IMG/VR virus record: IMGVR_UViG_2778261009_000008
Coordinates: 1-51,038 of that record
From: a virus
Taxonomy: Duplodnaviria > Heunggongvirae > Uroviricota > Caudoviricetes
Reading direction: 5' to 3' (one strand)
DNA: 51,038 bases
The first letter of the stretch is position 1. Each line of letters begins with the position of its first letter. The position numbers and the translations under genes are program-made. Of the stretch, positions 1-17,237 are shown piece by piece. Below the pieces are notes generated by a model, which did no database searches, was not told where the DNA came from, and was given only the letters and a program-made list of their open reading frames with translations.

Positions 1-1131
1 TCAAATGACCAGTTTTTTCCATTCCTTACCGCGTGCGTCGTTGTAAATATCGGTCATTTTTTGATTCGAATGGCCCAGCAAAATTTTGGTATCAATTCCC
101 TGTTCTCTGAACAATCGTTCTGATAAAGATCTCTGCTCATGGAAAGAGGGTGGGGTGCCATTAGCACGCCAGTTGTAATCCACAGAATCCCGGGCTTTTT
201 TAAATGCAACGGTTAACGTTGCTGGCTTAACCATCCCGCCGCGCTTAGCTGTCCCTTTAGCATGATGGTGGTGCAATAGCCACGGACTAAGAACGCAATC
301 GCGACAGGATGACACCACATCATCCAGGGTGAGATTTAATTTATCGCAACGCAGAGCCAGAGGGATGGCAATCCGGGTTCCTGTTTTTTGCTGTTCGACA
401 TGAAGATAACCATCCCTGATATCCGAAAATTTCATTTTGCAAATATCTGAAAGGCGCTGGCCTGTCATCAGTGCCAGCAGCATACCACGCTGTAAAAAGT
501 AACCATCCTTTTCCGCTGCATTATAAATCATCATCCACTCATCAAAGGTCAGTCGTTGCCGTGATATCCGTACCTGTGGTTTTTTTGCCGATTCTGCAGG
601 GTTAAAGCCTAGCGGGACATCGCCCGTTTGCTGGGCCTCCCGGAAAACATCGATCAGTACTTTCCTGAAAATTTGTCCCATTCTGTTATGTCCTTTTGCC
701 TTGTAATCTTCCAGCACCGATACCACATCTTTTACGGTTATGGCATCTAATGGTCTGGTACCAAAACGTTCATCAAATACTCTGAGAGGGGATGCTTTCT
801 GTTTCAGTGTGTTGAGTTTGATCTCTCCGTTTTCATATCTTTCCTGTTGAATTTTTCGGTAACTATTCAGAAAAGCAGAAACGGTTGATGGACTACCGGT
901 ATCACTAATAATTTTCTCCTGCAGACTGAGCATTTGTTCCATTTGTTGCCTGGCAAGACGGCTGTTCGCTTCTGCTGCAAGAGCTTCTGCCTGTTTCTGG
1001 TCAATACTGCCGAGTCCGTGATTTTTTCCTGTTATGGGATGCCTGTAACGCCAGTAAACTTTGTTATTTCTTTTGTCAAAATACGGAGATAATCCCGGAA
1101 CTTCAGTTTTATATTTTCGTGGGCGCGCCAT
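1..1131 (-). CDS. int: Phage tyrosine integrase (lambda Int family)
   Basis: 376 aa ORF ending at window edge; N-terminal arm-binding-like region and C-terminal catalytic domain (…HDARG…Y) typical of lambdoid integrases; followed by an xis-like gene. Confidence 0.9.
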   Translation of the reverse strand: MARPRKYKTEVPGLSPYFDKRNNKVYWRYRHPITGKNHGLGSIDQKQAEALAAEANSRLARQQMEQMLSLQEKIISDTGSPSTVSAFLNSYRKIQQERYENGEIKLNTLKQKASPLRVFDERFGTRPLDAITVKDVVSVLEDYKAKGHNRMGQIFRKVLIDVFREAQQTGDVPLGFNPAESAKKPQVRISRQRLTFDEWMMIYNAAEKDGYFLQRGMLLALMTGQRLSDICKMKFSDIRDGYLHVEQQKTGTRIAIPLALRCDKLNLTLDDVVSSCRDCVLSPWLLHHHHAKGTAKRGGMVKPATLTVAFKKARDSVDYNWRANGTPPSFHEQRSLSERLFREQGIDTKILLGHSNQKMTDIYNDARGKEWKKLVI

Positions 1132-1357
1132 CTTCCAGTATCCTCTTCAAAGCAGGGTGATCTGTGGCGATCACTTCCGGCTTGTTTACCATTCCGACAA
1201 AGCGAGCTCGAGGATCCACTCGCCAGTGTCTTCCAACTTTTTTGGGGAGAGGAAATATCATTCCGGCTTTAGCGTATTTACTTAACGTGCCCGGAGTCGG
1301 GACCGGGTCACTGAATTCCTCTTTTGCCCACTCAGTGAGAAGAATAAGTCTTGCCAT
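1109..1357 (-). CDS. xis: Excisionase (Xis-like DNA-binding protein)
   Basis: 82 aa ORF immediately upstream of and overlapping the int start; small basic winged-helix-like protein in the canonical xis position. Confidence 0.7.
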   Translation of the reverse strand: MARLILLTEWAKEEFSDPVPTPGTLSKYAKAGMIFPLPKKVGRHWRVDPRARFVGMVNKPEVIATDHPALKRILEDGAPTKI

Positions 1358-1421
1358 GAGAGTTGTTCGCTAATCATGGTCGCCGCCACTATAGCTTGCG
1401 GGCGACGACCGGGGTTGAACA

Positions 1422-3893
1422 TTAAAAATCAGCCTGACTCGGGATCAGTTTTTGCCAGATGGCTGAAACGTATTTTGCCTGGTAACGCGCATCGTGCAGC
1501 GCGTTATGGCGTTCACCTTCGAATGGAATAGTCGTTCTTGCGTCGAAATCCATCACCAGTCCCAGAGCAACCATCGTTCTTACATCGCGATCATTGGTGT
1601 AACGCCACGGGCAGGGGATCCCCTGCCGTTCATATGAACGGCGTAAAATCACGTTGTCGAAAGTTGCACCGTTACCCCAGACCTGAACAAAAAATTCACC
1701 GGAGTTTTCGTCGATAAATTCCCGGAATTGCAGCAGTGCATCATCCAACGGGATTTCATCGGTCAGAATGGCGGATTGTGCTTCGCGTGACTGTTTCAGC
1801 CACCACTTAATGGTGTCCCGATCGATGACCCCGCCTGCGGTTTCCAGATCGATAGTTTTGCTGAATTCTGGCCCCATCTCTCCGGTTGCCGGATCAAAAA
1901 ACTTACCGGCTATAGCGTTTATTGGCGCATCAGGATTTTTTCCCATTGTTTCAAGGTTAATCATCAGATGGTGCCACAACCTGCTGGTGGATGTGGTTTC
2001 ATGATGACCGTTCACTTTAATTAAGGGATTTGCTGTTTCGCCAGTTTTATTATCGCTGGCGTGATACTGATCGCTGACAGTGTTCTCCTTGTGCAGATGT
2101 TCAGTGCCTTCCATTTCCTCCGGATCATTTTCCTGAGCTTCAGCCTGATTCTCTTCATCGAATGTTTCCTGGTAGGTTGCGTTCCCCATCACCGCACCAC
2201 AGTCAGGACAGTTGCCGCCACCGGTCTGACCGCATGCGGTGCAAACTTTTTCCAGTTCCTGTTGCACTGCTGGTTCTGGTTGTTGTTCTTCTGGCCCGTT
2301 TTGTTGCGTATCCGGGCTGTTTTGTTCCGCTTCTGGCTCATTTTGTTTCACGTTGGGCTGATTCTGGTCCTCAGCGTCGCGACTCTGGATCCCTTTCACC
2401 CATTTCGGATCATCCGGGTCGCTAATCCCTTCAACAAATTCACCACGTGATGCAGCAAGCAATTTATCGGCGTCAGGCTGGCTGATATTGGCTGCCTGCA
2501 TCATTTTGTTTACTTCGTCAGCGGTAACTTTTACCGGCTCTGGTTGTTCGGAATCTTCAGTGCTATCCACATTTTGCGGTAAGCCCGTGTATGTGCCATT
2601 TTTTCGGGCAAAATATTCTTCTTTTGAGATTTCGGTACCGCCGGCAGCCAGCGCCCTGTCCAGACCAGAAAGTTTGTTTGCCCTGCCGTATTTTTCCCCG
2701 CCCTTATCGGTAAAGACGAAATAAAATGGTCCTTCACGCTCTACAGATGGTTCAGCTTCCACCAGGATTTCATTTTTTTGAGTATCGGATTCTGCCGTCT
2801 CCACTGGAGCAGTTTGTGCTGCTGGTGACTGGAGAGCATCAGCAGAGCTCTGGTCTGTTTCTTCATGTTCAAACACGCCCTTTGTCGTCAGGTATTCGCT
2901 GATATATTTGTTCAGTGCAACGGGATCTTTGTGAATATCGATCGGACGTTCGCGAACAAGGCCAAAAATAGTCTGATGGTCATAGGCAAGTGCTTCGGGC
3001 TGTTTGCGCATTGATGCTGAGATACGCTTCCAGTCTTCGCGATCCTTGTCGATAACCTCATTTGTCGCCCAGCGATGGATGGTACCGTCAATGTTTCCTG
3101 CATCCACATCACCGGGCCAGAGGGCGCAGGCCAGTTCATTGTCGAGTGTTTTCCATGTCTGTTTGTATTCGCGGCGAACGGCAACAGTGACAGCCCCGGT
3201 TTTTTCAGCAGCGTTTTCAGTGTTCTGTTGGTTTACTCTGGAACGGGCGATATCAACGACAGATATGTATTTCCCGGTTTCCTTGCGTTCACTTTCGCGA
3301 CGTTTTTTCCAGATGCGCATCTCTGCCTGAATTTCGGGCCATTTAGCAGCAGGTTTACATTTATGCTTAACCCACCCGATGGCATGCAGCTTAAGCTCCG
3401 GATACATGGCGTTAACTTCTGGCATCTTCATCAACGCTTCAACGATATGGCCGTCGAATGTTGCCATGTCTTCCTGCAACAATTCCTGAGCGCTAATCAC
3501 CATATCAACAGTGATGTTTTCACATGCGTCGAACTTAACCATGACGGCGTTCTGTACTTCAGGGGCCAGATTGTCAAAAGTGACGTTCATCGGTTCGGAT
3601 TCGGGTTCGACCGGGACAAAGGACGCAGACTCCTCATCCCAGCGGTTTTCCTGCATATATTCGGTATCCCAGGAATCGAGGGCAGGGCGGGGTATACCGG
3701 GTTTATCCTCGCAGACAATAAATTTATAAGCGCAGTCCTGAGCTGCCGGGAATTGCTCCAGAAATTGCCAGTGAAATTTTGCGCGTGCGCGACGCTCATC
3801 ACCGGCTTCAATGGCAGTGGCCACCGCAACAGCGCTATCTTCTTCTATGGCCTGTTCGTCAGGAATAGCAGCGCAAATAAAGATTTTATTCAT
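1422..3893 (-). CDS. Early-left exonuclease (exodeoxyribonuclease VIII-like; C-terminal DnaQ/DEDDh-type 3'-5' exonuclease domain)
   Basis: 823 aa ORF; C-terminal motifs (…[12 protein letters not shown]…, …[13 protein letters not shown]…) resemble DEDDh exonucleases; central CxxC…CxxC zinc-ribbon-like motif (CTACG…CPDCG) and an acidic/Q-rich low-complexity linker; position equals the recombination gene slot of lambdoid phages. Confidence 0.75.
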
Positions 3894-3988
3894 TGTGTTT
3901 TAACCTCATTACAGATTTCAGGGTGAACGAATCCCTGCCATTGCTGGCATTTTTAATCCGTTGGTATGGCGTTAATATGGCTGGCGGG

Positions 3989-4177
3989 TTATCCAGCCGG
4001 TGTTTCGTTATTCAGGTACAGCGATACTTTTTTTACCGGTAGGCATTCACCAGAAATTTTTTGCTCGTCTCTTGCCTGGAGGCAGGATTCTTTACTGGCA
4101 TAAATTCCGGTAATCACATTCTGTGATTCACCCGTTATAAGAAAAACCGTCATCACCAGTGCAAATGCTGAAGTCAT
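3989..4177 (-). CDS. Hypothetical small protein with N-terminal hydrophobic helix
   Basis: 62 aa ORF in the early-left region between exonuclease and repressor; N-terminal hydrophobic segment; no recognisable family. Confidence 0.3.
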   Translation of the reverse strand: MTSAFALVMTVFLITGESQNVITGIYASKESCLQARDEQKISGECLPVKKVSLYLNNETPAG

Positions 4178-4362
4178 TGACGTTCTCCGAAAATACCAAG
4201 TTTAATAAGGGCAATTCGGGAAAGAATGGAATTATCATTGAGCAGATAAGGCTCATATTTCCGCATATTAATGGCATCCTCAGTAAACGCTTTATTACTG
4301 AGCAGAACACCAATATCAAAACAACCTTCAGACGTATTAACGTTTGGTAATAACGTTTCCAT
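4174..4362 (-). CDS. Hypothetical small early-left protein
   Basis: 62 aa ORF abutting the previous one (kil/sieB-like position); composition AT-rich; weak support. Confidence 0.3.
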   Translation of the reverse strand: METLLPNVNTSEGCFDIGVLLSNKAFTEDAINMRKYEPYLLNDNSILSRIALIKLGIFGERQ

Positions 4363-4843
4363 TATCGCGTCCTCAACAATGAATTTTGTGATGCAGCGCC
4401 TGGTGCCTCCAGGTGACGTTAACCAGTTAACAATTAACGTCGGGTTAGTTGATGCTCGTTACGCCAGTAAAAGACCGCCTTACTGCTTTAACTGTTCCGC
4501 GTGCGCATAGCCGCATTCACAGCATCACAAAATTCACTTTAAAAAGGGCGGATATTCATTTCCGCCGAATCACCAGAAAAGTGATAACAGAGGTTGTTGT
4601 GGCTGGGGTGTCACTTAAGCGTATGGTCAACCTGACAACCCGGTGTCCTCAACGGGGGAAGGAATAACCCCGCCATACTTACCGCCGCGCCATTTCGCGG
4701 ATTGCCACAACCGGAAGCGCACGGTCGAAGAAATCTAACCTTATATGCAAAGGAATCTCGCCGTGCGCTTTCGTGTTATGCCCTGACTTTTCAGGGTAAA
4801 TTAACCTGTGGAAACCTGTTTTTACTGGCGCTAATCAGTTAGC

Positions 4844-4987
4844 GTTTCTGGCTAACCAGCGATGCGCGCCAGCTTCGGTTTTAAACGTTTTACTTTTGGT
4901 ATACGTCATCGCGGTAAACGTGCCGTCTTGGTTGGGGAATACTCCGCACACCAGAGATTCGTTGTTGCCAAGCTCGATAGTATCCAT
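4844..4987 (-). CDS. Hypothetical small protein (47 aa), first gene of the leftward early operon
   Basis: ORF below the 60-aa cutoff of the track, read by hand (MDTIELGNNESLVCGVFPNQDGTFTAMTYTKSKTFKTEAGAHRWLARNAN); lies downstream of candidate operator palindromes. Confidence 0.25.
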
Positions 4988-5172
4988 GTTGACCCCATTT
5001 ACCCTTAACGCCGGGTAGCGGAACTAAAAACCTGCTGCGCTGTTATACAAAGTGTTCCCGCCGTCATGTTCATACGCCTCGGGCTGGCTACTTAACCCCT
5101 GACCACTGCCGGGTAACTCGAGGTATTGCCCTGCATTCTGTGGGGCGGAGTGGGTTGGTATGAAAGGAAGTA

Positions 5173-5209
5173 TACCCACGGGTATCCAAAAAGTAAATAC
5201 CCATGGGTA
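5173..5209. promoter_or_regulatory. Pair of 12-bp palindromes (TACCCACGGGTA / TACCCATGGGTA), candidate left operator sites
   Basis: Two near-identical palindromes 25 bp apart, the second perfect, located just beyond the repressor gene 3' end and upstream of the leftward early genes. Confidence 0.35.
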
Positions 5210-5254
5210 ACTTTTTTTTCAGGCGTCTTAACTGGTGACTGGTTGTTTGGTGAG

Positions 5255-5716
5255 TTATGATGCGTTTTGTGCTTTCTTTTTACGGATTTCTTCGTAGATC
5301 ATATTGTAATACTGTTTTTTCTCTTCAAGAGTTTTTAATAAGTTATCCGCTTCACTTTCTGGCAGCTCGTCTAAGAGATCTAAAAAAATACGTTGTCGTG
5401 GCGTTAGAACCCTTGTTTCATAATTGGAGGCTGTGTTCGTTGATGATGAAACGATACCATCCATCCATCCTCGGGGTAACCCAAAGGACTCTTCGATAAT
5501 CTCCACCATATCATCAGCGATCCGTTTTTTTCCCTTTTTCCCCTCTGGGTACAACATTCTTGATACATAAGAAGGCTCGCGACCGATCTTTCTGGCTACG
5601 TTAACCGCTTTACCATCGCATTTCTCATCACGAATTTTGATGAGCTGCTGTCGTCTAAATTCATATTTGTCCATAGGTAAATAATAGATGTGATTACCGT
5701 AAGGTAAACAACCCAA
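5255..5716 (-). CDS. Prophage repressor (RacR-like)
   Basis: 153 aa ORF transcribed divergently from a Cro-like gene; resembles Rac-prophage-type repressors by recollection; predicted TTG start is doubtful, an internal Met (MDKYEF…) may be the real start. Confidence 0.7.
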   Translation of the reverse strand: MGCLPYGNHIYYLPMDKYEFRRQQLIKIRDEKCDGKAVNVARKIGREPSYVSRMLYPEGKKGKKRIADDMVEIIEESFGLPRGWMDGIVSSSTNTASNYETRVLTPRQRIFLDLLDELPESEADNLLKTLEEKKQYYNMIYEEIRKKKAQNAS

Positions 5717-5774
5717 AGGTATTGACTTTTGTTTACCTATAGGTATTCTTTGCTGTGTTTACTAAGGAGTAGCT
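5660..5774. promoter_or_regulatory. Divergent promoter/operator region of the immunity switch
   Basis: Intergenic region between the divergent repressor and Cro-like genes; inverted repeats ATAGGTAAA…TTTACCTAT and a TTGACT hexamer; SD AGGAG precedes the rightward gene. Confidence 0.45.
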
Positions 5775-6056
5775 ATGGAAGAATTAAGAATATTTCTCAA
5801 TTCTCTTTCGTCAGATGAACAGCGTATGTTTGCATGCGAGTGTGGTACCAGCATCGGTTATCTAAGAAAGGCATTGAGTAAAGGCCAAGTGTTAGGGGCA
5901 TCGTTATGTGTCCTTATTGAGCGAGCCAGTAATGGTGAAGTTACACGTCAGCAACTAAGGCCTTTTGATTGGATGAATATTTGGCCTGAGCTGGAAGATA
6001 CCAAAACGTTAACACAACCACTTTCTAGGAGCTTGATTCATGAAAATCAAGCATGA
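5775..6056 (+). CDS. Cro/YdaS-like HTH transcriptional regulator
   Basis: 93 aa ORF with good SD, divergent from the repressor; HTH-like segment (…GTSIGYLRKALSKGQ…). Confidence 0.7.
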   Translation: MEELRIFLNSLSSDEQRMFACECGTSIGYLRKALSKGQVLGASLCVLIERASNGEVTRQQLRPFDWMNIWPELEDTKTLTQPLSRSLIHENQA

Positions 6057-6465
6057 GCACATCCGCATGGCGATCAATGCCTGGGCCTATCCGGACGGTG
6101 AGAAAGTTCCTGCAGCTGAAATAGCCCGGACTTATTTCGAACTGGGGATGACATTCCCTGAACTGTACGACGACAGCCATCCGGAAGCCCTGGCCCGTAA
6201 TACACAGAAAATTTTCCGTTGGCTGGATAAAGACACCCCTGATGCTGTTGAAAAAATGCAGGCTCTGTTACCGGCGATCGAAAAGGCGATGCCGCCTTTG
6301 CTGGTGGCCCGTATGCGCAGCCACAGTTCTGAATATTACCGTGAGATCGTCGAACGGAGGGATCGGCTGGTGAAGGATGTCGATGATTTTGTTGCGTCAG
6401 CGGTTGTTTTGTATGACCAGATGAATCGCGGCGGCCCGGCAGGGAATGCTGTGGTGATGCACTAA
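6040..6465 (+). CDS. YdaT-like protein (CII-position regulator)
   Basis: 141 aa ORF starting MKIKHEHI…, overlapping the Cro-like stop; resembles YdaT-family proteins of Rac-like prophages. Confidence 0.65.
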   Translation: MKIKHEHIRMAINAWAYPDGEKVPAAEIARTYFELGMTFPELYDDSHPEALARNTQKIFRWLDKDTPDAVEKMQALLPAIEKAMPPLLVARMRSHSSEYYREIVERRDRLVKDVDDFVASAVVLYDQMNRGGPAGNAVVMH

Positions 6466-6487
6466 AAGCACGGTGTTCGGGGGGGTT

Positions 6488-7456
6488 ATGAGCAGCAAGC
6501 TTCATGGTCTTGTCTGGGAAGGGTGCGCCTTCACCGGCATGATCTTATCCAGGGTGGCGGTTATGGCCCGTCTTGCAGACTACAGCAATGACGAGGGCGT
6601 GTCATGGCCTGCCATTGAAACTATCCGGCGTCAGATCGGTGCAAGAAGTGAATCCACCGTTAAATCTGCTATTGCAGAACTGGCGAAAGAGGGCTGGCTG
6701 ACGAAGGAAGAGCGTAAGGTCGGTGGGCGTAACGTAAGCAATATCTATCGGCTTAATGTGGAAAAACTCGAAGCAGCTGCAACTGCGGCGCGTGAGGCAT
6801 ATAAACCGAAAAGAAAAATTAGCCCGGCAAAAAATGACCCGTTAACAGTTAACCCGTCAAATATTGCCCCCTCAACGGTTGACCCGTCAAATGTTGATGG
6901 ATCAACGGTTGATAAAAAACTGCGTATTAGGGGGGCGATGATTGACCCCGATCCGTCAGTATTAAAACCTGATCCGTCAGATAAAAGATCTTCTTGTCCG
7001 GACGTTTCACTGCCGGACGAAAAACGATCATCACCAGTTGAGCGATTTCTGGAGAAACACCCAGATGCGCATACCTGGAATGTACCGAAGCGACAGTGGG
7101 GTACCCGTGAGGATGTCGCCTGTGCGCAGTGGATTTGGGGACGGGTTGTGGCGTTGTATGAACAGGCCGCCAGTGATGATGGTGAGGTGTCACGCCCCAG
7201 AGAACCTAACTGGACGACCTGGGCGAATGATGTGCGCATGATGCGTATGCTGGATGGACGTAGTCACCGGCAGATTTGTGAAATGTTTGGGCGTGTCCAG
7301 CGGGATTCGTTCTGGGTAAAAAACATCATGAGTCCGGCAAAACTCAGGGAAAAATGGGATGAACTGGTTATCCGCCTGGGGCGTTCGCCCGCGCAGCGTT
7401 GCGTAAATCACATTTCTGAACCGGACACTGAAATACCGCCGGGATTCAGGGGGTGA
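6488..7456 (+). CDS. Replication initiation protein (lambda O-like)
   Basis: About 322 aa; N-terminal winged-helix-like domain, central repeat-encoding linker containing DNA iterons, C-terminal domain; followed by a DnaC-like gene. Confidence 0.75.
   Translation: MSSKLHGLVWEGCAFTGMILSRVAVMARLADYSNDEGVSWPAIETIRRQIGARSESTVKSAIAELAKEGWLTKEERKVGGRNVSNIYRLNVEKLEAAATAAREAYKPKRKISPAKNDPLTVNPSNIAPSTVDPSNVDGSTVDKKLRIRGAMIDPDPSVLKPDPSDKRSSCPDVSLPDEKRSSPVERFLEKHPDAHTWNVPKRQWGTREDVACAQWIWGRVVALYEQAASDDGEVSRPREPNWTTWANDVRMMRMLDGRSHRQICEMFGRVQRDSFWVKNIMSPAKLREKWDELVIRLGRSPAQRCVNHISEPDTEIPPGFRG
6836..6995. repeat. Iteron-like direct repeats inside the O-like gene followed by an A/T-rich tract (candidate replication origin)
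   Basis: CCCGTCAAAT(A/G)TTG x2, TCAACGGTTGA x2, CCCGTTAACAGTTAA, then GATAAAAAACTGCGTATTA and GATCCGTCAG x2; mirrors the lambda arrangement of ori within O. Confidence 0.5.
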
Positions 7457-7462
7457 TGTGGC

Positions 7463-8209
7463 ATGAAAAACATTGCGGCAGTTGGGGTTCTTGAATGTAT
7501 TCGCAGACTTGCACCACTGGGGGCGGTTCCACCGTACCGGACGGTGGAGGAGTGGCGGGAATGGCAACTTGCTGAAGGACGAAAACGCAGCGAGGAGATT
7601 AACCGCCAGAATCGCCAGTTGCGGGTGGAAAAAATCCTGAATCGTTCGGGCATCCAGCCTCTGCACAGCAAATGCTCGTTTGCAAATTATCAGGTGCAGA
7701 ACGACGGGCAAAAATACGCGCTGAGCTAGGCCAAATCCATAGCTGACGAACTGATGACCGGGTGCACGAATTTTGTGTTCAGCGGTAAAACCGGCACCGG
7801 GAAAAATCACCTTGCAGCGGCGATGGGCAACCGGCTGATGGTGAAGGGGCGCAGCGTGATTATCGTCACCGTGTCTGACGTCATGAGCGTGTTGCATGAC
7901 AGCTACGACAACGGCAAATCCGGGGAAAAATTTTTACAGGAGCTTTGCGGGGTTGATTTGCTGGTCCTGGATGAAATAGGCGTCCAGCGGGAGACGAAAA
8001 ACGAGCAGGTGGTATTGCACCAGATAATTGATCGCCGGACAGCATCACTGTGCAGTGTTGGGATGTTAACAAACCTGAATCATGCCGCAATGAGTACGCT
8101 TCTTGGTGAGAGGATTATGGACCGCATGACCATGAACGGTGGTCGATGGGTGACGTTTAACTGGGATAGCTGGCGTCCAAATGTCAGCAATATGAGGGTT
8201 GTGAAGTAA
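7463..8209 (+). pseudogene. DnaC-like helicase loader interrupted by an in-frame TAG (7727-7729)
   Basis: ORFs 7463-7729 and 7754-8209 are in the same frame and together align along the length of DnaC (…NRSGIQPLHSKCSFANYQ… then Walker A FSGKTGTGKNHLAAA, Walker B LLVLDEIG); the TAG sits where DnaC has a Lys codon. Confidence 0.65.
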
Positions 8210-8230
8210 TTTTGTCCGGAGGAAATTTTA

Positions 8231-8947
8231 ATGGAAACCGTATCTGACGCACTGAAAGCACTGAAAAAAGCCTCTTCACATGTGGTGGCTGCGCGCCTTG
8301 GAATCAGTCGTGAAGAGGCTGTCAACGAACTGTGGAAACTGAAACGCCGTGGTGAAGCGGATAACAGGGGGGCGATGTGGTGGCTGACTCAGGCTGGGGA
8401 AAGTGAATCTGTGATACAACCACCAAAAGTGACGGCGCAAATGCTGACAGAGGCGATTGAACAACATGGCCCACAAACGGCGGATGAGCTGGCATTGATG
8501 TTCGGAATTACCTCCCGCCGTGCGAATTCATCGCTGGCAATGGCAATCAGCAAAGGGCGTCTGATTCGCGTGAATCAGGGCGGTAAATTTCGTTACTGCA
8601 TGCCGGGCGATAATTTACCAGTAGAGCCGAAAGCCGCATCTGTAGCGGAAACGGATGGTAAAGCCCTTCCTCAGCCAGCAGGTGTTGCGTTACCAGTCCA
8701 GCAAACGACTACACAGGAAGATATTAAAACAGAAACTGTGGTGGACATTGTGCAGTCGTTGCCACTGTTCACCGAAACGCAAGCGGATGACCTGGTTTTA
8801 CCATCGCTGCATATGGCAAACCGCGAACTGCGTCGGGCGAAAAGTGATGTCCAGAAGTGGGAGCGAGTCTGTGCTGCGCTGCGGGAACTGAACAAACACA
8901 GGGATATTCTCCGGGATATTACCGCCACCAGAGAGCAGCAGCGGTGA
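8231..8947 (+). CDS. Hypothetical protein with N-terminal winged-helix-like domain
   Basis: 238 aa ORF with good SD (GGAGGAAATTTTAATG); no family recognised. Confidence 0.6.
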
Positions 8948-9261
8948 GTGGCTGGAAGAAGTGGCGTTGGGCTGAAATCCTGATACTCCGGCAGTGTGCG
9001 GGAACGATGAGAGTCGAAAGCATCGGTTATCTGATTGGCCGTAGTGAGTCAGCCGTCAGGACGAAAGCGCGGGAACTGGGGATCAGCATGATGTTACGGG
9101 GTGATTATCACCAGTCAGCCAAATTCTCACAGCGTGATATTGAGCTGGCGCGGCAACTGCATCAGCGTGGCGTACCCCGACGGGAAATTGCCGAAAAGTT
9201 TGGGATGAAGTTGGGCGCAGTGAATAACTACGTTTATTTCGACAGGAGGCTTCAGGAGTGA
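8944..9261 (+). CDS. Hypothetical small HTH protein
   Basis: GTG start overlapping the preceding stop (GTGA); about 105 aa with HTH-like segments; translationally coupled. Confidence 0.45.
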
Positions 9262-9554
9262 GGATTTATATCGCCGGTCCGATGACGGGATATGAAAATT
9301 TTAACCGCGAGGCATTTCACAAGGCGGCAGAGGCGCTGAAACGGGAAGGGCATACCGTTTTAAATCCGGCTGTGCTTCCGGACGGGCTGACTCAGCCACA
9401 CTACATGGATATTTGCATGGCAATGCTCCGTTGCGTGGATGCGGTTTACATACTGAAAGGCTGGCAGCAGTCGGCAGGTGCAAGGACTGAGCTGGCACTG
9501 ACGGAGAAACTGGGTCATGCGGTTATTTTTCAGGAGGTGGTCAGTGAATATTGA
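9258..9554 (+). CDS. Nucleoside 2-deoxyribosyltransferase-like protein (DUF4406-like)
   Basis: 98 aa; N-terminal IYIAGPMTG and downstream SAGARTELALTEKLG resemble the NDT-fold signature with a catalytic Glu. Confidence 0.6.
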   Translation: MRIYIAGPMTGYENFNREAFHKAAEALKREGHTVLNPAVLPDGLTQPHYMDICMAMLRCVDAVYILKGWQQSAGARTELALTEKLGHAVIFQEVVSEY

Positions 9555-9814
9555 CCCGGCGATAACGATTGATACGGCCCTGAATACCGGCCTGGCACTT
9601 CTTGGTTATTTCTACATCATGTTCTGCAGCGGACGATGGATGTCACTGTTGTTCATGAAAAAATGGAATAAACGCCGTAGGCAGGATCAACGCCAGCAGG
9701 CAATGGATGCATTTTTCGAAGCCTTCGGGATTGACGGTATGGAACCAGGAGATCCAGCTCGCGCAATCAGCAGAGGGGGCGTAGTAATCCTTGTATATCG
9801 GAGTGAAGAGAAAA

Positions 9815-10132
9815 ATGACGATCACAAAACAACGTGTAGAAGAAATCATATCCCGCATTGGAATGTATGGACATGGTGCAGGGTATACCGCAGACGAGGT
9901 TAATGATCTGGCTGTACTGGCGCTGAATTTATCAAATATCGCGAACCTGAAGCGATACGAGCTTGATATGGGTGGTTGCGACTCGTGCGGTCAGGATTGT
10001 GGCGCTGATATGACTGAAGATCCTGATGGTGATTATGTCCTGTTTGATGACGTGGTTAAGTTGTTTGAATTTGATACAACCACTCAAAAGTTAGAAATCC
10101 CGGCAAAGGAGGCAGCCAGTGAGCAAGATTGA
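9815..10132 (+). CDS. Hypothetical acidic protein
   Basis: ORF 9791-10132; most plausible start MTITKQR at 9815 after a purine-rich SD; C-terminal Cys cluster CDSCGQDCG. Confidence 0.45.
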   Translation: MTITKQRVEEIISRIGMYGHGAGYTADEVNDLAVLALNLSNIANLKRYELDMGGCDSCGQDCGADMTEDPDGDYVLFDDVVKLFEFDTTTQKLEIPAKEAASEQD

Positions 10133-10556
10133 CTATCAGGCACTGCGTGAGGTAGCACAAAACTATCAATCGACGCTGGCGTGGTATCAGGAAAAGCCAG
10201 ACAGTCCAAACGCTGAACAGGATTGTGATGCAGCTTTAGCGGCGTTTAAGCGTCACATCCGTCATCGGGAAGCGGATATTATCGCTGATTTGCTGGATGG
10301 ACTGGAAGAAGCAAAATCACAACTCAACGAGCAGCGTGAGTATTACGAAGGCGTTATCTCTGATGGGAGCAAGCGTATTGCTGAACTGGAAGCGCGGGAA
10401 GTTCAATTACCGACTCGCTACGACCTTCGATATGGACACCCGATAAATGCAGATGAGCGACAAGTCATGATACCTAAAGAAAATGGCAGTTGGCTTTACC
10501 TGATTGACCTAGAACACGCATTACGCGTCGCTGGCATTCGCATCAAAGGAGAGTGA
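10119..10556 (+). CDS. Hypothetical phage protein
   Basis: 145 aa ORF overlapping the previous stop; coiled-coil-like middle. Confidence 0.55.
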   Translation: MSKIDYQALREVAQNYQSTLAWYQEKPDSPNAEQDCDAALAAFKRHIRHREADIIADLLDGLEEAKSQLNEQREYYEGVISDGSKRIAELEAREVQLPTRYDLRYGHPINADERQVMIPKENGSWLYLIDLEHALRVAGIRIKGE

Positions 10557-10557
10557 T

Positions 10558-10857
10558 ATGGCGTTAACACACCACGAACTCTGTCAGATTGCGTACAAGT
10601 TCCTTAAGCGCAACGGGTTCAAGGTTTGCTTTCATGACCGCTTTGTTGCTGTAACCAGTACCGGAGAACAGCCAGATGCTATGGGATTCAGAAATTCAGC
10701 ATCATGCCTGATAGAGGCGAAGTGTTCTCGTGCTGACTTGTTGGCAGATAGAAAAAAGCGTTTCCGTAAAAATCCCTCATTTGGCATGGGCGACTGGCGA
10801 TTCTTTATTAGTGAGCCGGGAATTATTTCAGTTGAGGATTTACCTCCCGGCTGGTGA
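10558..10857 (+). CDS. Small PD-(D/E)xK / VRR-NUC-like nuclease-fold protein
   Basis: 99 aa; motif …QPDAMGF…(12)…CLIEAKC… matches a PD…E.K catalytic core; start 1 nt after the preceding stop. Confidence 0.5.
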   Translation: MALTHHELCQIAYKFLKRNGFKVCFHDRFVAVTSTGEQPDAMGFRNSASCLIEAKCSRADLLADRKKRFRKNPSFGMGDWRFFISEPGIISVEDLPPGW

Positions 10858-11144
10858 TTACTTCACGTTGTTAACGGAAGAGTACGGAAAGTACATGGAT
10901 GGCCCAGGGGTAATTGCTGTTGGGGTAATCCTGACGATAAGCCATTTACTGGAAATAAGCAGGTTGAATGCGATTACATGTTATCTGCATTAAGGCGCAT
11001 GGAGTTGAGAGGGCACCTTAATGAAATATATGACGGTGTAATTGTTAATAAGAAAGAAGGAAACGCGGCATGACCACTATTACCAAAGATTGACTGCTGA
11101 CAATCCAGCATTGGCGCGAAACATACGGACCGGGTAGCAACGTT

Positions 11145-11657
11145 GTGCTTCCAGCAGAAGAAGCGGAAGAGCTGGCACGGATTGCGCTGGCATCACTGGC
11201 AGCAGTATCGGATGAACGAGCAGCCTATGAATTATTTATGGAGAAGCGTTTCGGAGAATCTGTAGATCGCCGCAGAGCAAAAAATGGCGATAGAGAATAC
11301 ATGGCATGGGATATGGCGCTTGGCTGGATTATCTGGTGTCACCGCGCCGCCATGCTTCAGGCTGGAAACTTTCGGGAAAATAAGGGTTCGTCAACCAATA
11401 ATTTTCGGGAAATCTCGGAAACGTCAACCAACTATCCGGTAACTCCGGATGGTTGGATAAGCTGTAGTGAGCGAATGCCGGATGATGGTCAGCACGTAAT
11501 TATTTTATGTGATGGCGCATTCGTTCTTTATGCGCAATATCGAGACGGTGAGTTTTTTGATGTAGTCCGTAATGGTGATGAATTTTTCGAAACACAGAGC
11601 CGCAATGTAACCGGCTGGATGCCGCTACCAGAACCGCCGCAGGAGGTGCGCCAATGA
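11145..11657 (+). CDS. DUF551-domain phage protein
   Basis: 170 aa (GTG start); C-terminal …WISCSERMPDDGQHVIILCDG…VTGWMPLPEPP is the typical DUF551 signature. Confidence 0.65.
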   Translation: MLPAEEAEELARIALASLAAVSDERAAYELFMEKRFGESVDRRRAKNGDREYMAWDMALGWIIWCHRAAMLQAGNFRENKGSSTNNFREISETSTNYPVTPDGWISCSERMPDDGQHVIILCDGAFVLYAQYRDGEFFDVVRNGDEFFETQSRNVTGWMPLPEPPQEVRQ

Positions 11658-11737
11658 ACTGGCCTGAAGCATTTGCAATTACAGGCGTTGCTATGGTTAT
11701 CGCTTTTTTAATATATGTTATTTGTCGGTGGGGGTAA
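11654..11737 (+). CDS. Small hydrophobic peptide (27 aa)
   Basis: MNWPEAFAITGVAMVIAFLIYVICRWG with perfect SD AGGAGG 7 nt upstream; single predicted TM helix; below track cutoff. Confidence 0.45.
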   Translation: MNWPEAFAITGVAMVIAFLIYVICRWG

Positions 11738-11772
11738 AAACGTTCGCCGGGATTCACACCAAAGGAGGGAAT

Positions 11773-11877
11773 ATGTCGGATGATATCTCACTGGCAATGG
11801 AAGGCGCTCTGGCCGTTATTGTTGTTGTGGGTGTTTACTGCCTGGTCGTGCTTTTGATGGATCGTCTGGGGAGCTGA
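11773..11877 (+). CDS. Small hydrophobic peptide (34 aa)
   Basis: MSDDISLAMEGALAVIVVVGVYCLVVLLMDRLGS with SD AAAGGAGGG upstream; single TM helix. Confidence 0.45.
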   Translation: MSDDISLAMEGALAVIVVVGVYCLVVLLMDRLGS

Positions 11878-12043
11878 ATTCATTACGATATGGGAATTTC
11901 CATATCGGGTAAAAAGGGGGGAGTAAAACGAGAGTCAAGTAGATGTATCGGTCAAAAATTGAGCAGTAAAAGGGGCGATATTAATCGCCCTTGAGTTGTA
12001 TTAGTTATCATTTTGTTGCCTTGCCGGGAGTAAGTCGAGCTTG

Positions 12044-12688
12044 CTATTTAACTGTCCATGCCGGGCTGAAATCCACTTCCTGAAATAACTCAGTTAGCCC
12101 GCTAATTTGTTTAAGTCTCAGTACTTCATCCTGATCCATACCCAACTCAGTGCCAATGCGTTCATCTGCCCATCCCAAGCGTGAAAGATCTCTTACAATA
12201 TCAGACACTGAGTCTATCTGGTGTTTCCCCCTAGCCCGGTTATGTCGAATGGTTGCGGCAATGCGTGCGGCTTGCCCTTTTCTCTCTGGATTAATACAGG
12301 CTACAGGCAGCCAGCCCCTCAGACGTTTTCCTGTAACTGATTCTCTGCCCAATAACTGACGATGAAAACCATCCACCACCAGATAATGATTCTTCTCCTC
12401 TGACACCACCACCGGTTGTGTGAAACCATCTTTTTCCAGTGACTGCTTCAGCAGTTTCTTCTCACTTGGTGCCATGACATTGGGGTTATAATCGTTGGCT
12501 ACCACCTCATCCGCTTTCACCCACAGCACACAGTCTACAGGCTCCTGTGCAAAAGGACTGACTTCATGCAGTACCCCGCGCAGATGGTTAAGGGCTCGTA
12601 TGGACTCTTCTTCGGGCTGTTCCCGACTGAAGTACTGACGAATCATGTTGCTTAGTACATCCATCTCAGGCGTCACAGAATCCCCCAT
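12044..12688 (-). CDS. ParB-like nuclease domain protein (IbrB-like)
   Basis: 214 aa; ParB/Srx-fold motifs (…YLVVDGFHRQ…, …IRHNRARG…); overlaps the upstream PAPS-reductase-like gene. Confidence 0.8.
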   Translation of the reverse strand: MGDSVTPEMDVLSNMIRQYFSREQPEEESIRALNHLRGVLHEVSPFAQEPVDCVLWVKADEVVANDYNPNVMAPSEKKLLKQSLEKDGFTQPVVVSEEKNHYLVVDGFHRQLLGRESVTGKRLRGWLPVACINPERKGQAARIAATIRHNRARGKHQIDSVSDIVRDLSRLGWADERIGTELGMDQDEVLRLKQISGLTELFQEVDFSPAWTVK

Positions 12689-13899
12689 TCTTTCCTCCTT
12701 TCCTTCATTCGTTGCAGATAACGCTCATAGTGCCGGGGTTTGTTCGGACTGAAGGAGAGGGTCCGGCACCAGAAGTCATTCTTTATGAGCGTCTTACAGA
12801 TACGTCGCCAGGACGGGATATCCCGGCTCCCCAGGTCATTCTCCTGTTCATCCGGGATATCATCCGGGAAGCCCCGCGTCTGATACCAGCGCAGGTAGAC
12901 TGCAATTTTGTTACGGTAATGTTCTGCTGTTCTTTCTGGCATAACATCCAGCATGAACATTGCGTAGCTGCGCCAGGTATGATGAGCCGGTTTTGTGATT
13001 CGTTTACGCAGAGCAAAATAGGCACCGCTTTCATTGGCATAAAGAGCGCCACTGGCAGCCCCTGACACTCGCTCACACATCCTGGCCCAGGTTTCCGGCT
13101 CCAGAACATGGTAAAGCCACAGCCCCTTACGCTGTTCCGGGCCAAAGGGCTCACAAACACGCATGTTGCGTAACGACACTCCGGCACGGTACATTAGGTC
13201 GTACAGGGGATTGTAGATGGCGCGGGTTCTTGAGTTATACGTCCATATATCATTTGTTTTCCAGTCATACAATGGATACATGGTGTAGTAAAAACCATCG
13301 GGTGAAGCGGTGGTCCAGGGTTTATCATCTGCATATCTCAGTTTGCGCTGAGACACCAGTCCCATAAAGCGATTGAGCGATTCATCAGCACGAACACCAG
13401 TTAGTATTCCCACTCCACATCGGTTACCGGCAAACCAGGAAGAAAATGCCGGAACAAATTCTTCAAACGTCATGGCATACCGATAAAATGGGAAATACGA
13501 CATATCTGTAATAGCGTCATCTGGTGGCTGACGAACCCATTCTACACCTGGCTCCCAACATATCCATTCTGGCTGAAACTGAGAGACGCCATTTACCGTA
13601 GTCAGAGGAAGCGCTACCCAGTAAAAATTGTCTGTCACATGCCGGTACATTTCCCTCATCTTTTGGATATGATTAATCGTGCACTGATATTGGGCTTCCC
13701 AGTCAATGAATAAAACCGAAAAACGACGTTTTTTTCTACTGGCGACTTCTGCCACAAGATGGAAAAGCACAGTAGAGTCTTTGCCACCAGAAAAAGACAA
13801 GCAGACCTCATTAAACGTTTCGAACAACCATTCAATGCGATGGATTGCTGCTGACAGAACATTTTCCCCTGTGCTGATTTTTGTTATGGTTCCTGACAT
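12673..13899 (-). CDS. PAPS-reductase-like PP-loop ATP pyrophosphatase (IbrA-like)
   Basis: 408 aa; PP-loop motif SFSGGKDS near the N-terminus; AT-rich promoter-like region upstream (13900-14050). Confidence 0.85.
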   Translation of the reverse strand: MSGTITKISTGENVLSAAIHRIEWLFETFNEVCLSFSGGKDSTVLFHLVAEVASRKKRRFSVLFIDWEAQYQCTINHIQKMREMYRHVTDNFYWVALPLTTVNGVSQFQPEWICWEPGVEWVRQPPDDAITDMSYFPFYRYAMTFEEFVPAFSSWFAGNRCGVGILTGVRADESLNRFMGLVSQRKLRYADDKPWTTASPDGFYYTMYPLYDWKTNDIWTYNSRTRAIYNPLYDLMYRAGVSLRNMRVCEPFGPEQRKGLWLYHVLEPETWARMCERVSGAASGALYANESGAYFALRKRITKPAHHTWRSYAMFMLDVMPERTAEHYRNKIAVYLRWYQTRGFPDDIPDEQENDLGSRDIPSWRRICKTLIKNDFWCRTLSFSPNKPRHYERYLQRMKERRKEWGIL

Positions 13900-14053
13900 A
13901 CAATCTTCTAATGATAAAACGGTAAAACCTATACTTATTAAGTAATATTATGTAACAATCATTTTGCATGAATGCAATATGTGATGGTCTTATACACTTT
14001 TTATCGCATTCTGGTTAAAATCATCCAGCCAGCCTGAACAACTGGCACCTGCT

Positions 14054-14344
14054 GTGTCACCGGAGAACCCGATGGCGCAACATATAAAATCCCACAATTC
14101 TGAAGCCGTCCCGGCCATTAAGCGGGGGCGGCATTCGCACGTATTTAAAACCCACTGGTACCAGCATCCTCCATGCACTGAAGAACAGGCCGAATGGCTG
14201 ATTCAGTGTTACCGCAGGCGCGGATACGAGGTTAAGAAAGCCCTCAGCCTCAATTATCGTCACTGGATAATCTCTGTCAGGCTCCCTTATTCCGAACGTC
14301 CACCGCGTCCGTCCCGCACATTCCAGCAACGTATCTGGAGGTAA
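14054..14344 (+). CDS. Hypothetical small basic protein
   Basis: 96 aa ORF (alternative start MAQHIK at 14072) immediately upstream of the DUF968 gene. Confidence 0.45.
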   Translation: MSPENPMAQHIKSHNSEAVPAIKRGRHSHVFKTHWYQHPPCTEEQAEWLIQCYRRRGYEVKKALSLNYRHWIISVRLPYSERPPRPSRTFQQRIWR

Positions 14345-14345
14345 C

Positions 14346-15395
14346 GTGCGGGTATTACTTCGACCTGTTCTGGTGCCGGAACTTGGCCTGGTGGTCCTTA
14401 AGCCCGGACGCGAATCACTGCCTGTTTTTCATTGCGGCAGGGTGCTGGTGGAGCCGGAACCGAAAAGCATGCGTGCTCTGCCGTCCGGGTTTGTACCTGC
14501 CGTTCGCCAGCCGCTGGCGGAAGATAAATCATTACTGCCATTTTTCAGCGATGAGCGGGTGATCCGTGCTGCGGGTGGCGCTGGTGTACTGTCTGACTGG
14601 TTATTACGTCACGTGAAATCCTGCCAGTGGCCACACGGCGATTATCATCACAGCGAAACCGTCATTCACCGTTACAGTACCGGCGCGATGGTGTTGTGCT
14701 GGCACTGCGACAACCACCTGCGGGAGCAGACATCTGATTCACTGGAGCTACTTGCTCAACAGAATCTGGCCGCCTGGATGATTGACGTCATCCGTCACGT
14801 AATGAATGGCGCACAGGAGCGTGAATTATCGCTGGCTGAATTATCCTGGTGGGCGGTCTGCAATCAGGTGGCTGATGCGCTTCCGGAATCTGTATTGCGT
14901 CGTTCGCTGGGATTACCGGTGGAAAAAATTCGCTCCGTATACAGTGAGAGCGACATCATACCGGGAGAGCAGACCGCCACCAGCATCCTGAAGCAGCGGA
15001 CAAAAAACATAGCGCCACCGCTTCACGCCCACCAGCCACAAACCACGCCACAGGAAAAGACGGTAGTAAGCATCGCCGTTGATCCGGAGTCCCCGGAATC
15101 TTTCATGAAACGGCCTAAACGTCGTCGCTGGGTTAATGAAAAGTTCACGCGCTGGGTTAAGACGCAGCCGTGTGCATGCTGTGGAAAGCCAACTGATGAT
15201 CCGCATCACTTGATTGGCCATGGGCAGGGCGGTATGGGGACAAAATCCCACGATATTTTCACACTACCGTTGTGCCGGGAGCACCACAACGAACTTCATG
15301 CTGACCCGCTGGAGTTTGAGAAAAAGTACGGGTCCCAGGTTGAGTTAATTTTTCATTTTCTTGATCACGCCTTTGCGACTGGCGTGCTCGGGTAA
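14346..15395 (+). CDS. DUF968-domain protein (YdfU-like)
   Basis: 349 aa; Cys/His-rich C-terminus (…CACCGKPTDDPHH…CREHHNELH…); standard position upstream of rusA. Confidence 0.8.
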   Translation: MRVLLRPVLVPELGLVVLKPGRESLPVFHCGRVLVEPEPKSMRALPSGFVPAVRQPLAEDKSLLPFFSDERVIRAAGGAGVLSDWLLRHVKSCQWPHGDYHHSETVIHRYSTGAMVLCWHCDNHLREQTSDSLELLAQQNLAAWMIDVIRHVMNGAQERELSLAELSWWAVCNQVADALPESVLRRSLGLPVEKIRSVYSESDIIPGEQTATSILKQRTKNIAPPLHAHQPQTTPQEKTVVSIAVDPESPESFMKRPKRRRWVNEKFTRWVKTQPCACCGKPTDDPHHLIGHGQGGMGTKSHDIFTLPLCREHHNELHADPLEFEKKYGSQVELIFHFLDHAFATGVLG

Positions 15396-15407
15396 AAGAG
15401 GTGACTG

Positions 15408-15767
15408 ATGCTCATAGATTTGGTTTTACCTTACCCGCCAACGGTGAACACCTACTGGCGTCGTCGTGGCAGCACATATTTTATCTCGGAGGAGGGAAAG
15501 CGCTATCGCCGTGCTGTGGCGCTTATTGTTAACCAGCAGCGGCTGAAATTAAGCCTGTCCGGAAGGCTGGTAATCAGGATTATTGCAGAGCCACCGGATA
15601 AGCGCCGCCGTGACCTGGACAATATTCTGAAAGCGCCGCTGGATGCGCTTACGCATGCGGGGTTGTTAATGGACGATGAGCAGTTTGATGAAATCAATAT
15701 TGTGCGTGGCCTGCCTGTTCCTGGCGGGCGGCTGGGGATAAAAATCACAGAACTGGAGTGCGCATGA
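15408..15767 (+). CDS. rusA: Holliday junction resolvase RusA
   Basis: 119 aa; aligns with E. coli RusA including the catalytic block RRRDLDN…DAL…G…DD. Confidence 0.85.
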   Translation: MLIDLVLPYPPTVNTYWRRRGSTYFISEEGKRYRRAVALIVNQQRLKLSLSGRLVIRIIAEPPDKRRRDLDNILKAPLDALTHAGLLMDDEQFDEINIVRGLPVPGGRLGIKITELECA

Positions 15768-16447
15768 ATAACCAGTATTTACAGTTTGTTCGTGAGCAAC
15801 TCATGATTGCCACTGCGGATCTCAGTGGGGCGACAAAAGGCCAGCTGGAAGCCTGGCAGGAGAATGCCCTGTTCGATACAGGGCGTTACAGACGCAAAAA
15901 AATTCGTTATCGCGATGAGGTAACCGGAAAAATGATCACGCGGGATAATCCACCGATCCCGGGTAAACAATCACTGGCGAAAGGCTCATCAATTGCGCTG
16001 GTCAGTCCGGTTGAGTTTGCAACATCATCGTGGCGGCGTGCCGTTCTGGAACTGGAAGAACATCAGAAGGCGTGGTTACTGTGGTGCTACAGTGGAAATG
16101 TTTGCTGGGAAGATCAGGTCACTATAACACAATGGGTATGGGGTGAGTTTAAAGCTCAGGCTGGTACCAGAAAAATTGCAGGGAAAACGCTGGATCGTCT
16201 GAAGAAACTGATTTGGCTGGCGGCACAGGATGTGAAGAGTGAGCTGGCAGGGCGTGAGACCTATGAACATCAGGAGTTAGCGGTGTTCATAGGAGTTGCT
16301 AAATCTACATGGACAAAAACACACAGGCCTCACTGGTTGGCTATGCGGGGTAGTGCAGAGATGCTGGACAGGGATGCTCTTATTTCAGTAATGCGGGTAC
16401 GTTCACGGCAAAAGTCGCTTAATTTAGAACCATATCTTGCAAAATAG
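15758..16447 (+). CDS. Q-like late antiterminator (putative)
   Basis: 229 aa ORF directly after rusA, followed by a TATAAT hexamer and two intrinsic terminators; assignment rests on position, not on recognised similarity. Confidence 0.5.
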   Translation: MRMNNQYLQFVREQLMIATADLSGATKGQLEAWQENALFDTGRYRRKKIRYRDEVTGKMITRDNPPIPGKQSLAKGSSIALVSPVEFATSSWRRAVLELEEHQKAWLLWCYSGNVCWEDQVTITQWVWGEFKAQAGTRKIAGKTLDRLKKLIWLAAQDVKSELAGRETYEHQELAVFIGVAKSTWTKTHRPHWLAMRGSAEMLDRDALISVMRVRSRQKSLNLEPYLAK

Positions 16448-16516
16448 AACTGAAGAGCATATATTCCGTGTAAATCTGATATTTTGCAGATTTTGTACGC
16501 GATGGCAAAGTAAGCA

Positions 16517-16543
16517 AACCCCGCCGCCGAGCGGGTTTTTTGT
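16517..16543 (+). terminator. Intrinsic terminator downstream of the Q-like gene
   Basis: GC-rich hairpin CCCGC-CGCCGA-GCGGG followed by TTTTTTG. Confidence 0.6.
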
Positions 16544-16562
16544 TGGCTTAACAGGTTATAAT
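16530..16562 (+). promoter_or_regulatory. Candidate late promoter (pR'-like) with consensus -10 TATAAT
   Basis: Perfect TATAAT at 16556-16561 with a weak -35 (TTGTTG) about 17 bp upstream; the upstream edge overlaps the T-run of the preceding terminator. Confidence 0.35.
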
Positions 16563-16743
16563 GTACAGTGCGAAACTGCCTGTTCAGCAGAATCATAGAG
16601 TGTTGACTGATACTGTCGCTGTACCCTGATGGGACTTGTGAGACTTCCGAACTGGAAGCCAGGAGTAGCAATAAGGTGATGACAAGCCTGCTGCCCTGTG
16701 TAAAAGGCACCTTAATGGTGCCTTTGTCGTTTTTATCAAAAGA

Positions 16744-16768
16744 TCCCCGCCACTGGCGGGTTTTTTAT
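16744..16768 (+). terminator. Intrinsic terminator (tR'-like)
   Basis: Hairpin CCCGCC-ACTG-GCGGG followed by TTTTTTA, about 190 nt downstream of the TATAAT. Confidence 0.6.
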
Positions 16769-16889
16769 GCCCGAAAAACGGCACAGGACGTTAAACGCGC
16801 TGGTGCTCGTGAATAGCGACCTTTCATCTTGCTGGCTTTTTCGACAAGAGTTATTGGTGTGTCACGTTAACCGGAAAAGGGAAAAAGAC

Positions 16890-17087
16890 ATGCTGAAACA
16901 GCAGGATATGACAGAAACCGCCAGAGTGGTGTTTAATGAATTAAGCGTCACCGAACCGGCGACAGTCGGGGAGATTGCGCAGAATACTTACCTTTCACGC
17001 GAACGCTGCCAGTTAATACTGACCCAGCTGGTTATGGCGGGGCTGGCAGACTATCAGTTCGGTTGTTACAGACGCCTTCAGTCCTGA
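16890..17087 (+). CDS. Small winged-helix-like DNA-binding protein
   Basis: Shorter start MLKQQDMTE chosen because the longer ORF (16767) would begin inside the terminator; 65 aa with HTH-like segment (…PATVGEIAQNTYLSRERCQLILTQLV…). Confidence 0.45.
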   Translation: MLKQQDMTETARVVFNELSVTEPATVGEIAQNTYLSRERCQLILTQLVMAGLADYQFGCYRRLQS

Positions 17088-17100
17088 AGGCTTTTTTATT
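17074..17100 (+). terminator. Intrinsic terminator
   Basis: Inverted repeat GCCTTCAG/CTGAAGGC followed by TTTTTTATTT. Confidence 0.5.
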
Positions 17101-17237
17101 TGTGGTAAATGGGCGGCTGGTGGGTGTTAGGGGCACTCACCAGCCATCTGCTCATGCGTCAGGATCACAAGCAAACCTCAGGCCCACTGCTTTGCGCAAA
17201 AGCAGAATGAGCCTATCAGAGACAGGCTTAATGATCC

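Follow-up and report, generated by a model that had tools for sequence, protein, structure and literature searches.

The helicase loader DnaC of Escherichia coli (PDB: 6QEL/6QEM) is built of two domains, a helicase-binding domain comprising residues 1-75 (PMC8213410) and an AAA+ module. In vitro, the isolated helicase-binding domain loads the helicase DnaB about half as efficiently as the wild type and stimulates unwinding nearly like full-length DnaC (PMC8213410). The YdaV/PRK12377 'ATP-binding proteins' (WP_000788945.1) of Rac-like and Stx-converting lambdoid prophages share this architecture with the gene described here, which is their orthologue. Intact orthologues sit in the replication module of the Stx phages POCJ13, 75/02 Stx and phiSTEC1589. 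A search of the literature for functional data on lambdoid 'DnaC-like' replication genes or on ydaV found none.

The window analysed in this study is a stretch of 51,038 nt of a virus of the Caudoviricetes (IMG/VR record IMGVR_UViG_2778261009_000008, positions 1 to 51,038). It contains a DnaC-type loader gene that differs from its YdaV/PRK12377 relatives in having TAG in place of CAG at codon 89. The gene and its surroundings comprise the following features:

6488-7456, plus strand: O-like replication initiator of 322 aa (Pfam HTH_36), annotated by PGAP as a 969-bp 'helix-turn-helix domain-containing protein'
7463-7729, plus strand: N-terminal fragment of the DnaC-type loader, 88 codons and TAG, with the helicase (DnaB)-binding domain, about 11 linker residues and a strong Shine-Dalgarno sequence
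7726-7730, plus strand: CTAGG, a putatively mutated Dcm site (ancestral CCAGG), in which T7727 begins the amber codon and presumably occupies the place of the former 5-methylcytosine
7754-8209, plus strand: C-terminal fragment of the loader in the same frame, a 151-codon ORF with the entire AAA+ module (Pfam IstB_IS21)
8231-8947, plus strand: DUF1627 (YdaW-like) gene of the same early operon (Pfam DUF1627), intact in the window

Translation of the loader gene from ATG 7463 to TAA 8207-8209 gives one frame with a sole internal stop, TAG at 7727-7729 (codon 89). The product read through this stop with Gln89 has 248 amino acid residues and scores 500.5 bits over its full length (1-248/248) against the NCBIfam family PRK12377 (NF009043), for which the curated cut-off is 389 bits. 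It aligns with E. coli DnaC (6qel_G) over residues 9-242 (E=1.5e-73), and the motifs GKTGTGKN, LDEIG, MLTN and GERIMDRM are conserved. Hence the claims of an earlier note on this DNA, that both ORF halves lie in one frame, jointly match full-length DnaC and are interrupted by this TAG only, are borne out. The C-terminal fragment holds the Walker A motif GKTGTGKN, the Walker B motif DEIG, sensor I and arginines shared with DnaC, and the loader protein is matched by both Pfam IstB_IS21 and Bac_DnaA. With the profile of the host DnaC equivalog (NF005931) it reaches 294.6 bits, below the cut-off of 357, and thus represents a phage-borne paralogue (YdaV of Rac-like prophages) rather than the host equivalog. 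Unlike DnaC, it has a histidine in place of the ssDNA-binding K143, and its ORF is broken at the equivalent of DnaC K87. The gene therefore has the family profile and the two-domain architecture of a DnaC/DnaI-type loader without an uninterrupted two-domain ORF. PGAP annotates the TAG copies as 'ATP-binding protein, internal stop' and RefSeq lists them as pseudogenes. A second loader gene was not detected in the window by tblastn.

The gene order in the window is repressor, Cro/YdaS-like, YdaT-like, HTH_36 O-like initiator, loader and DUF1627 (YdaW-like), and the YdaV/PRK12377 relatives have the same synteny from the cro/YdaS-like gene to DUF1627. Judged by its gene content, this set makes up the replication module in the early-right region of a lambdoid prophage, which adjoins ompW in relatives. 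The O-like initiator has an anti-Shine-Dalgarno duplex of -10.8 kcal/mol at ATG 6488, and the mechanically called ORF begins at GTG 6473. The Shine-Dalgarno sequence of the loader gene lies within the 3' end of the O-like initiator gene, and the DUF1627 gene may suffer polarity from the TAG upstream of it.

The earlier note had compared the stop with a lysine codon (AAG) of DnaC and proposed a single transversion. Host DnaC does have a lysine at this position of the 6qel_G alignment, but the intact orthologues in related prophages, in which the gene is uninterrupted, carry CAG (Gln) at codon 89, so that the change is a C>T transition and not an A>T transversion from AAG. Among these intact alleles are those of FDAARGOS_1290 and SCU-106; intact E. 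coli alleles share 98.8-99.6% nucleotide identity with the window, SCU-106 being the nearest with four differing nucleotides, and the phage genes of the Shigella phages POCJ13 and 75/02 Stx share 81%. Around the stop, the intact alleles read GAGCCAGGCC. CAG was present in 119 and TAG in 15 of the fetched loci, a sample that was partly selected for TAG; an unselected scan of viral contigs gave a single TAG contig.

Nucleotides 264-268 of the gene are CCAGG in the intact alleles and CTAGG in the window, which is the C>T change of the inner C of a Dcm site. The loader gene has two CCWGG sites; three of their four deamination outcomes are synonymous and one, at nt 265, creates a stop, which is one among the 79 possible single-base nonsense changes in this gene. 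The ancestral sequence would have been GAG-CCAGG-CC, with the inner C of the Dcm site opening the CAG (Gln) codon. If 5-methylcytosine was deaminated to T there and the change evaded very-short-patch repair, the result would have been CTAGG, which is read as TAG, as in the Coulondre-Miller amber hot-spot mechanism. From this sequence context we infer that Dcm deamination gave rise to the TAG.

Of 1,170 complete E. coli genomes with the sequence, nine (~0.8%) contain the exact 61-mer with TAG; they originate from Japan, Switzerland, China and the USA. In the remaining 1,161 genomes one base of this 61-mer differs, and the codon appears to be CAG. In a collection of 15 billion proteins, the 88-aa ORF occurs on 64 contigs, its R48C variant on 222 and the 151-aa ORF on 353, whereas the exact Gln-containing protein of 248 aa occurs on four contigs (against 64+222 for the TAG form). 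The contigs with the TAG allele come from NCBI, ENA and Logan assemblies. The draft assembly GCA_002536795.1 matches window positions 1-17700 with 100% identity, and across the late region none of the complete E. coli genomes is identical to the window (best match 96.8%).

In a comparison of alleles, TAG was present on at least three haplotype backgrounds:

Background 1: window clade, with the markers 34T, 56T and 522C and with sub-variants
Background 2: the commonest intact haplotype with C265T only, in locus L149 (at ompW, a different mosaic) and locus L150 (a prophage at another chromosomal site)
Background 3: the 337A haplotype with C265T, in GN02050 (whose prophage differs in its integrase and has a LexA-type repressor), of which locus L026 is the CAG twin

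This distribution points to recurrent mutation. All other loader disruptions among the sampled loci were singletons (stops at codons 130 and 229, and one indel), so C265T recurs on separate backgrounds and exceeds the other nonsense sites. That the recurrence is confined to the only Dcm site with a nonsense outcome agrees with a mutational hot spot. Within the gene, the markers flanking nt 265 are limited to 142 and 337/522, and some of the seemingly independent origins of TAG might instead reflect short gene-conversion tracts exchanged between prophages. Separately, GN02050 (L006:9266-10012) and L026 share the change 337G>A, which replaces the conserved Walker A glycine preceding the catalytic lysine by arginine (G113R). 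Judged by the residue affected, G113R is a probable second, missense route to an inactive loader, and L026 combines it with an open reading frame.

The two possible starts of the loader gene differ strongly in their predicted initiation. The anti-Shine-Dalgarno duplex at ATG 7463 amounts to -10.7 kcal/mol, and translation from there would end after 88 residues, in the linker past the helicase-binding domain. ATG 7754 sits 24 nt past the TAG and its duplex of +0.1 kcal/mol is weaker than that of 89% of the ATGs in the window, bona fide starts having -6 to -11 kcal/mol. On this energy ATG 7754 was rejected as a genuine start, and since it has no ribosome-binding site the AAA+ module (7754-8209), with its ATPase and ssDNA-binding functions, would essentially not be made; the C-terminal fragment is probably untranslated, or translated only through rare re-initiation. 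The tRNAs recognized by ARAGORN in the window are a tRNA(cat) and a tRNA-Arg(tcg). Neither has a CUA anticodon, in agreement with the earlier note, and the window thus encodes no amber suppressor. In E. coli, UAG is read through at about 0.02%, some 500-fold below the 12% reported for UGA, and the residue inserted is Gln (PMC9481147, PMC4333366). At this rate the full-length wild-type loader would arise in trace amounts only, through read-through by a near-cognate tRNA-Gln at about 1e-4.

Among the explanations for the interrupted frame, an error of sequencing or assembly (true codon CAG or AAG), raised in the earlier note, has in its favour the prior that single-base stops can be artefacts. 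It is excluded for practical purposes by the identical TAG in nine complete genomes sequenced independently in separate projects, by the occurrence of the halves on hundreds of contigs and by the 'internal stop' that PGAP reports. Amber suppression, which the same note had considered as a need of the gene, or a programmed read-through would restore the exact wild-type residue if a near-cognate tRNA-Gln decoded the codon. A dependence of the gene on either is nevertheless very improbable, given that a CUA tRNA is missing from the window, that the stop is rare and derived rather than conserved in the orthologues (9/1,170), and that basal read-through of UAG is so low; the sequence downstream of the stop is also identical to that of CAG alleles and hence holds no dedicated read-through signal. 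Only marginally better is the case for the 151-codon ORF as an independent gene with its own start, although gene callers predict this ORF and the short distance between the stop and ATG 7754 allows occasional re-initiation. In the intact alleles this ATG encodes a Met within the protein, its Shine-Dalgarno energy is that of a non-start, and an AAA+ module that lacks the helicase-binding domain cannot dock on DnaB (PMC8213410). The independent start that the earlier note had named as an argument against a single split gene was accordingly not found. ORFs 7463-7729 and 7754-8209 should be annotated as one nonsense-interrupted prophage gene, that is, neither as two genes nor as an assembly error.

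The position of the stop defines what is left of the loader. Codon 89 corresponds to DnaC residue 87 in the alignment to 6qel_G and DnaC's helicase-binding domain ends at residue 75, so the fragment consists of the complete helicase-binding domain and a short linker, and the AAA+ module lies wholly downstream. From the signals described above, the gene probably yields an 88-aa DnaB-binding fragment and no AAA+ module. A prophage without its own ATP-dependent loader is supported by these data, and its autonomous replication is most likely impaired, as judged by the part that the orthologue plays in the Stx-phage replication module. The earlier note's proposal of a replication-defective prophage is therefore the best supported as far as the loss of its own full-length loader is concerned, but 'dead' would be too strong a word for it. 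The helicase-binding domain is intact, the TAG prophage has spread, and the residual activity of the isolated DnaC domain in vitro (about half) implies that some function may be left.

The spread of the TAG prophage between hosts was followed at loci that carry the exact integrase of the window and cover both sides of the attachment junction, with the source of the window as reference. Two of these loci compare with the reference as follows:

L155, TAG present: 104 SNPs (~1.0%) in the 10-kb flank from ompW to oppD, 4 SNPs in 11.1 kb of prophage (0.036%)
L156, TAG present: 97 SNPs (~1.0%) in the 10-kb flank from ompW to oppD, 2 SNPs in 10.4 kb of prophage (0.019%)

The contrast between flank and prophage is significant in both loci (Fisher's exact test, p ~1e-28 each). 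The set of 28 loci comprises 14 distinct 2-kb flank haplotypes at ompW, and every locus that covers the site has TAG. The TAG prophages at ompW are at least 99.96% identical, and divergence drops 25-50-fold at the junction, with flank SNPs approaching the integrase stop as closely as 152-331 bp. A prophage adjoining mtfA (locus L017) likewise has this replication module with TAG. Vertical inheritance within one clone as the sole explanation was rejected because the flanks form 14 haplotypes and divergence falls off sharply at the junction. An independent hot-spot mutation after each integration is unlikely as well, since the near-identical clade is almost entirely TAG (the Gln form on 4 contigs versus 64+222). 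Near-identical TAG prophages in hosts with flanks diverged by about 1% mean that the defect has not stopped horizontal spread, and the simplest reading of these comparisons is that the TAG phage, or prophage modules bearing TAG, moved horizontally after the mutation. As judged from the distribution of its prophages, the TAG clade has spread, which speaks against a completely disabled phage. Candidate routes of transfer are residual activity of the helicase-binding domain, help from a co-resident prophage and rare packaging without replication. In four of the nine complete TAG genomes, no second gene copy that could complement was found by megablast.

Further changes were observed in the window and in related prophages. 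An amber codon in the DUF1627 gene (TCG>TAG, codon 192, nt 575 C>A) is present in S19-651, LZSFT34 and SCU-106, where PGAP likewise reports an 'internal stop'. The sister prophages have this gene at the following positions:

L002, 2432-3148: DUF1627 gene
L007, 10034-10750: DUF1627 gene
L008, 9932-10648: DUF1627 gene

SCU-106 combines an intact loader with the DUF1627 amber, and all four combinations of the two ambers exist, which implies recombination or repeated mutation. In locus L153 (GCA_038077175.1), a member of the TAG clade, a deletion corresponding to about 7700-15400 of the window extends from within the loader near the amber to near rusA and takes out the remaining loader gene and the nin-like region. 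This deletion and the DUF1627 amber of the sister lineages support a reading of the loader as a decaying pseudogene.

Other differences concern regions away from the loader. At window positions 10558-10857, a 99-codon ORF corresponds to a hypothetical protein of 171 aa in loci L012 and L013 and is 'frameshifted' in complete genomes; it is another small defect of the early region. The minus strand at 12044-13899 carries two genes in the middle of the early-right operon, one PAPS-reductase-like/DUF3440 and one IbrB-like, and by its gene content this insert looks like an ibrAB-type accessory cassette ('moron'). The portal region of the window consists of two ORFs, 31264-32628 (454 aa) and 32625-33848 (407 aa), that overlap by ATGA; in KY203 and KY177 PGAP calls this region one 'frameshifted' gene of 2585 bp. 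As the first ORF has a complete Phage_portal domain, the 'frameshift' may be an annotation artefact and not a defect. The tRNA at 18337-18412 is assigned by ARAGORN to Met(cat), and PGAP calls the identical gene in relatives tRNA-Ile; presumably it is of the lysidine-modified Ile2 type, which is common in Stx-like phages. KY203 is 99.97% identical to the window over the early 25.6 kb, the late regions being mosaic (90-96% identity). It also has an ompC-like porin gene between tail genes (L005:10887-12050) that is absent from the window at about 40406-40416.

Taken together, we favour, with a probability of roughly 75%, an inherited nonsense mutation at a Dcm hot spot in a YdaV/PRK12377 loader, that is, ordinary prophage decay in which the loader was lost and replication is likely impaired. 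The loader stop would then be an ordinary step of prophage decay made frequent by the hot spot, and the TAG allele would have persisted by stable inheritance, passed into other prophages through recombination and reached many E. coli backgrounds. The foremost competing explanation is that the truncated loader still functions, the 88-aa peptide, with or without a re-initiated AAA+ fragment, binding and opening host DnaB well enough for phage replication. The location of the stop just beyond the helicase-binding domain, the strong native Shine-Dalgarno sequence retained by the fragment, the half-wild-type DnaB loading by the isolated DnaC domain in vitro (PMC8213410), the near-identical TAG prophages in 14 flank haplotypes and the four complete TAG genomes without a complementing copy are all consistent with it. 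That loading result, however, was obtained in vitro with host DnaC rather than a phage loader, the truncation of only ~0.8% of the orthologues indicates that the AAA+ module is normally kept, and the deletion in L153 and the DUF1627 amber gained by sister lineages are what decay predicts. We regard a functional truncation as unlikely, and to the same degree the stronger form of this proposal, in which the TAG allele is a natural 'helicase-binding domain only' loader whose 88-aa fragment suffices in vivo to capture and open DnaB. If it were true, it would account for the lysogeny of many E. coli lineages by a prophage whose loader gene has a nonsense codon, and would be a natural demonstration that a phage replicon can do without the AAA+ module of its DnaC-type loader.

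Somewhat more doubtful still is a selected inactivation, in which a leaky phage loader sequesters or inhibits host DnaB and lysogens with a knocked-out loader are favoured. An excess of DnaC is inhibitory to DnaB, and the P protein of lambda is toxic. The same nonsense change on several backgrounds together with other independent disruptions, and the additional Walker A change G113R in GN02050 and L026, would agree with such selection. On the other hand, the recurrence is restricted to the Dcm nonsense site and is explained by a hot spot without selection, more than 99% of the copies are intact, and the truncated product still has the DnaB-binding domain, the very part expected to sequester DnaB. 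Current views remain unchanged unless the truncated loader proves functional. The CAG/TAG allelic pair in a near-identical prophage can be used to ask whether the AAA+ module is needed in vivo, and likewise how defects in replication genes affect prophage mobility.

The loader amber has close counterparts among described systems. The amber hot spots of lacI, according to a later summary of the original study, lie at the second C of CCAGG (Coulondre et al. 1978, summarised in PMC12606429). The feature common to the lacI sites as summarised there (Coulondre, Miller, Farabaugh and Gilbert 1978) and the loader is a recurrent CAG>TAG change at this second C; the loader case differs in that it concerns natural isolates and a prophage gene, and in that methylation of the site is presumed. 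The loader would illustrate, cleanly and in wild E. coli prophages, how the Dcm amber hot spot known from textbooks acts time and again in nature. With regard to mobility, defective prophages of O157 Sakai are still excised, packaged and transferred, often with the help of other prophages (Asadulghani et al. 2009, PMC2669165). They resemble the window prophage in being complete-looking lambdoid prophages with a point defect in an essential-looking function, and differ from it in that another prophage and another gene are affected and that the window is known from its sequence alone. Against this background, the interrupted loader is an instance of two known phenomena, the pseudogenisation of prophages and amber mutation at a Dcm hot spot.
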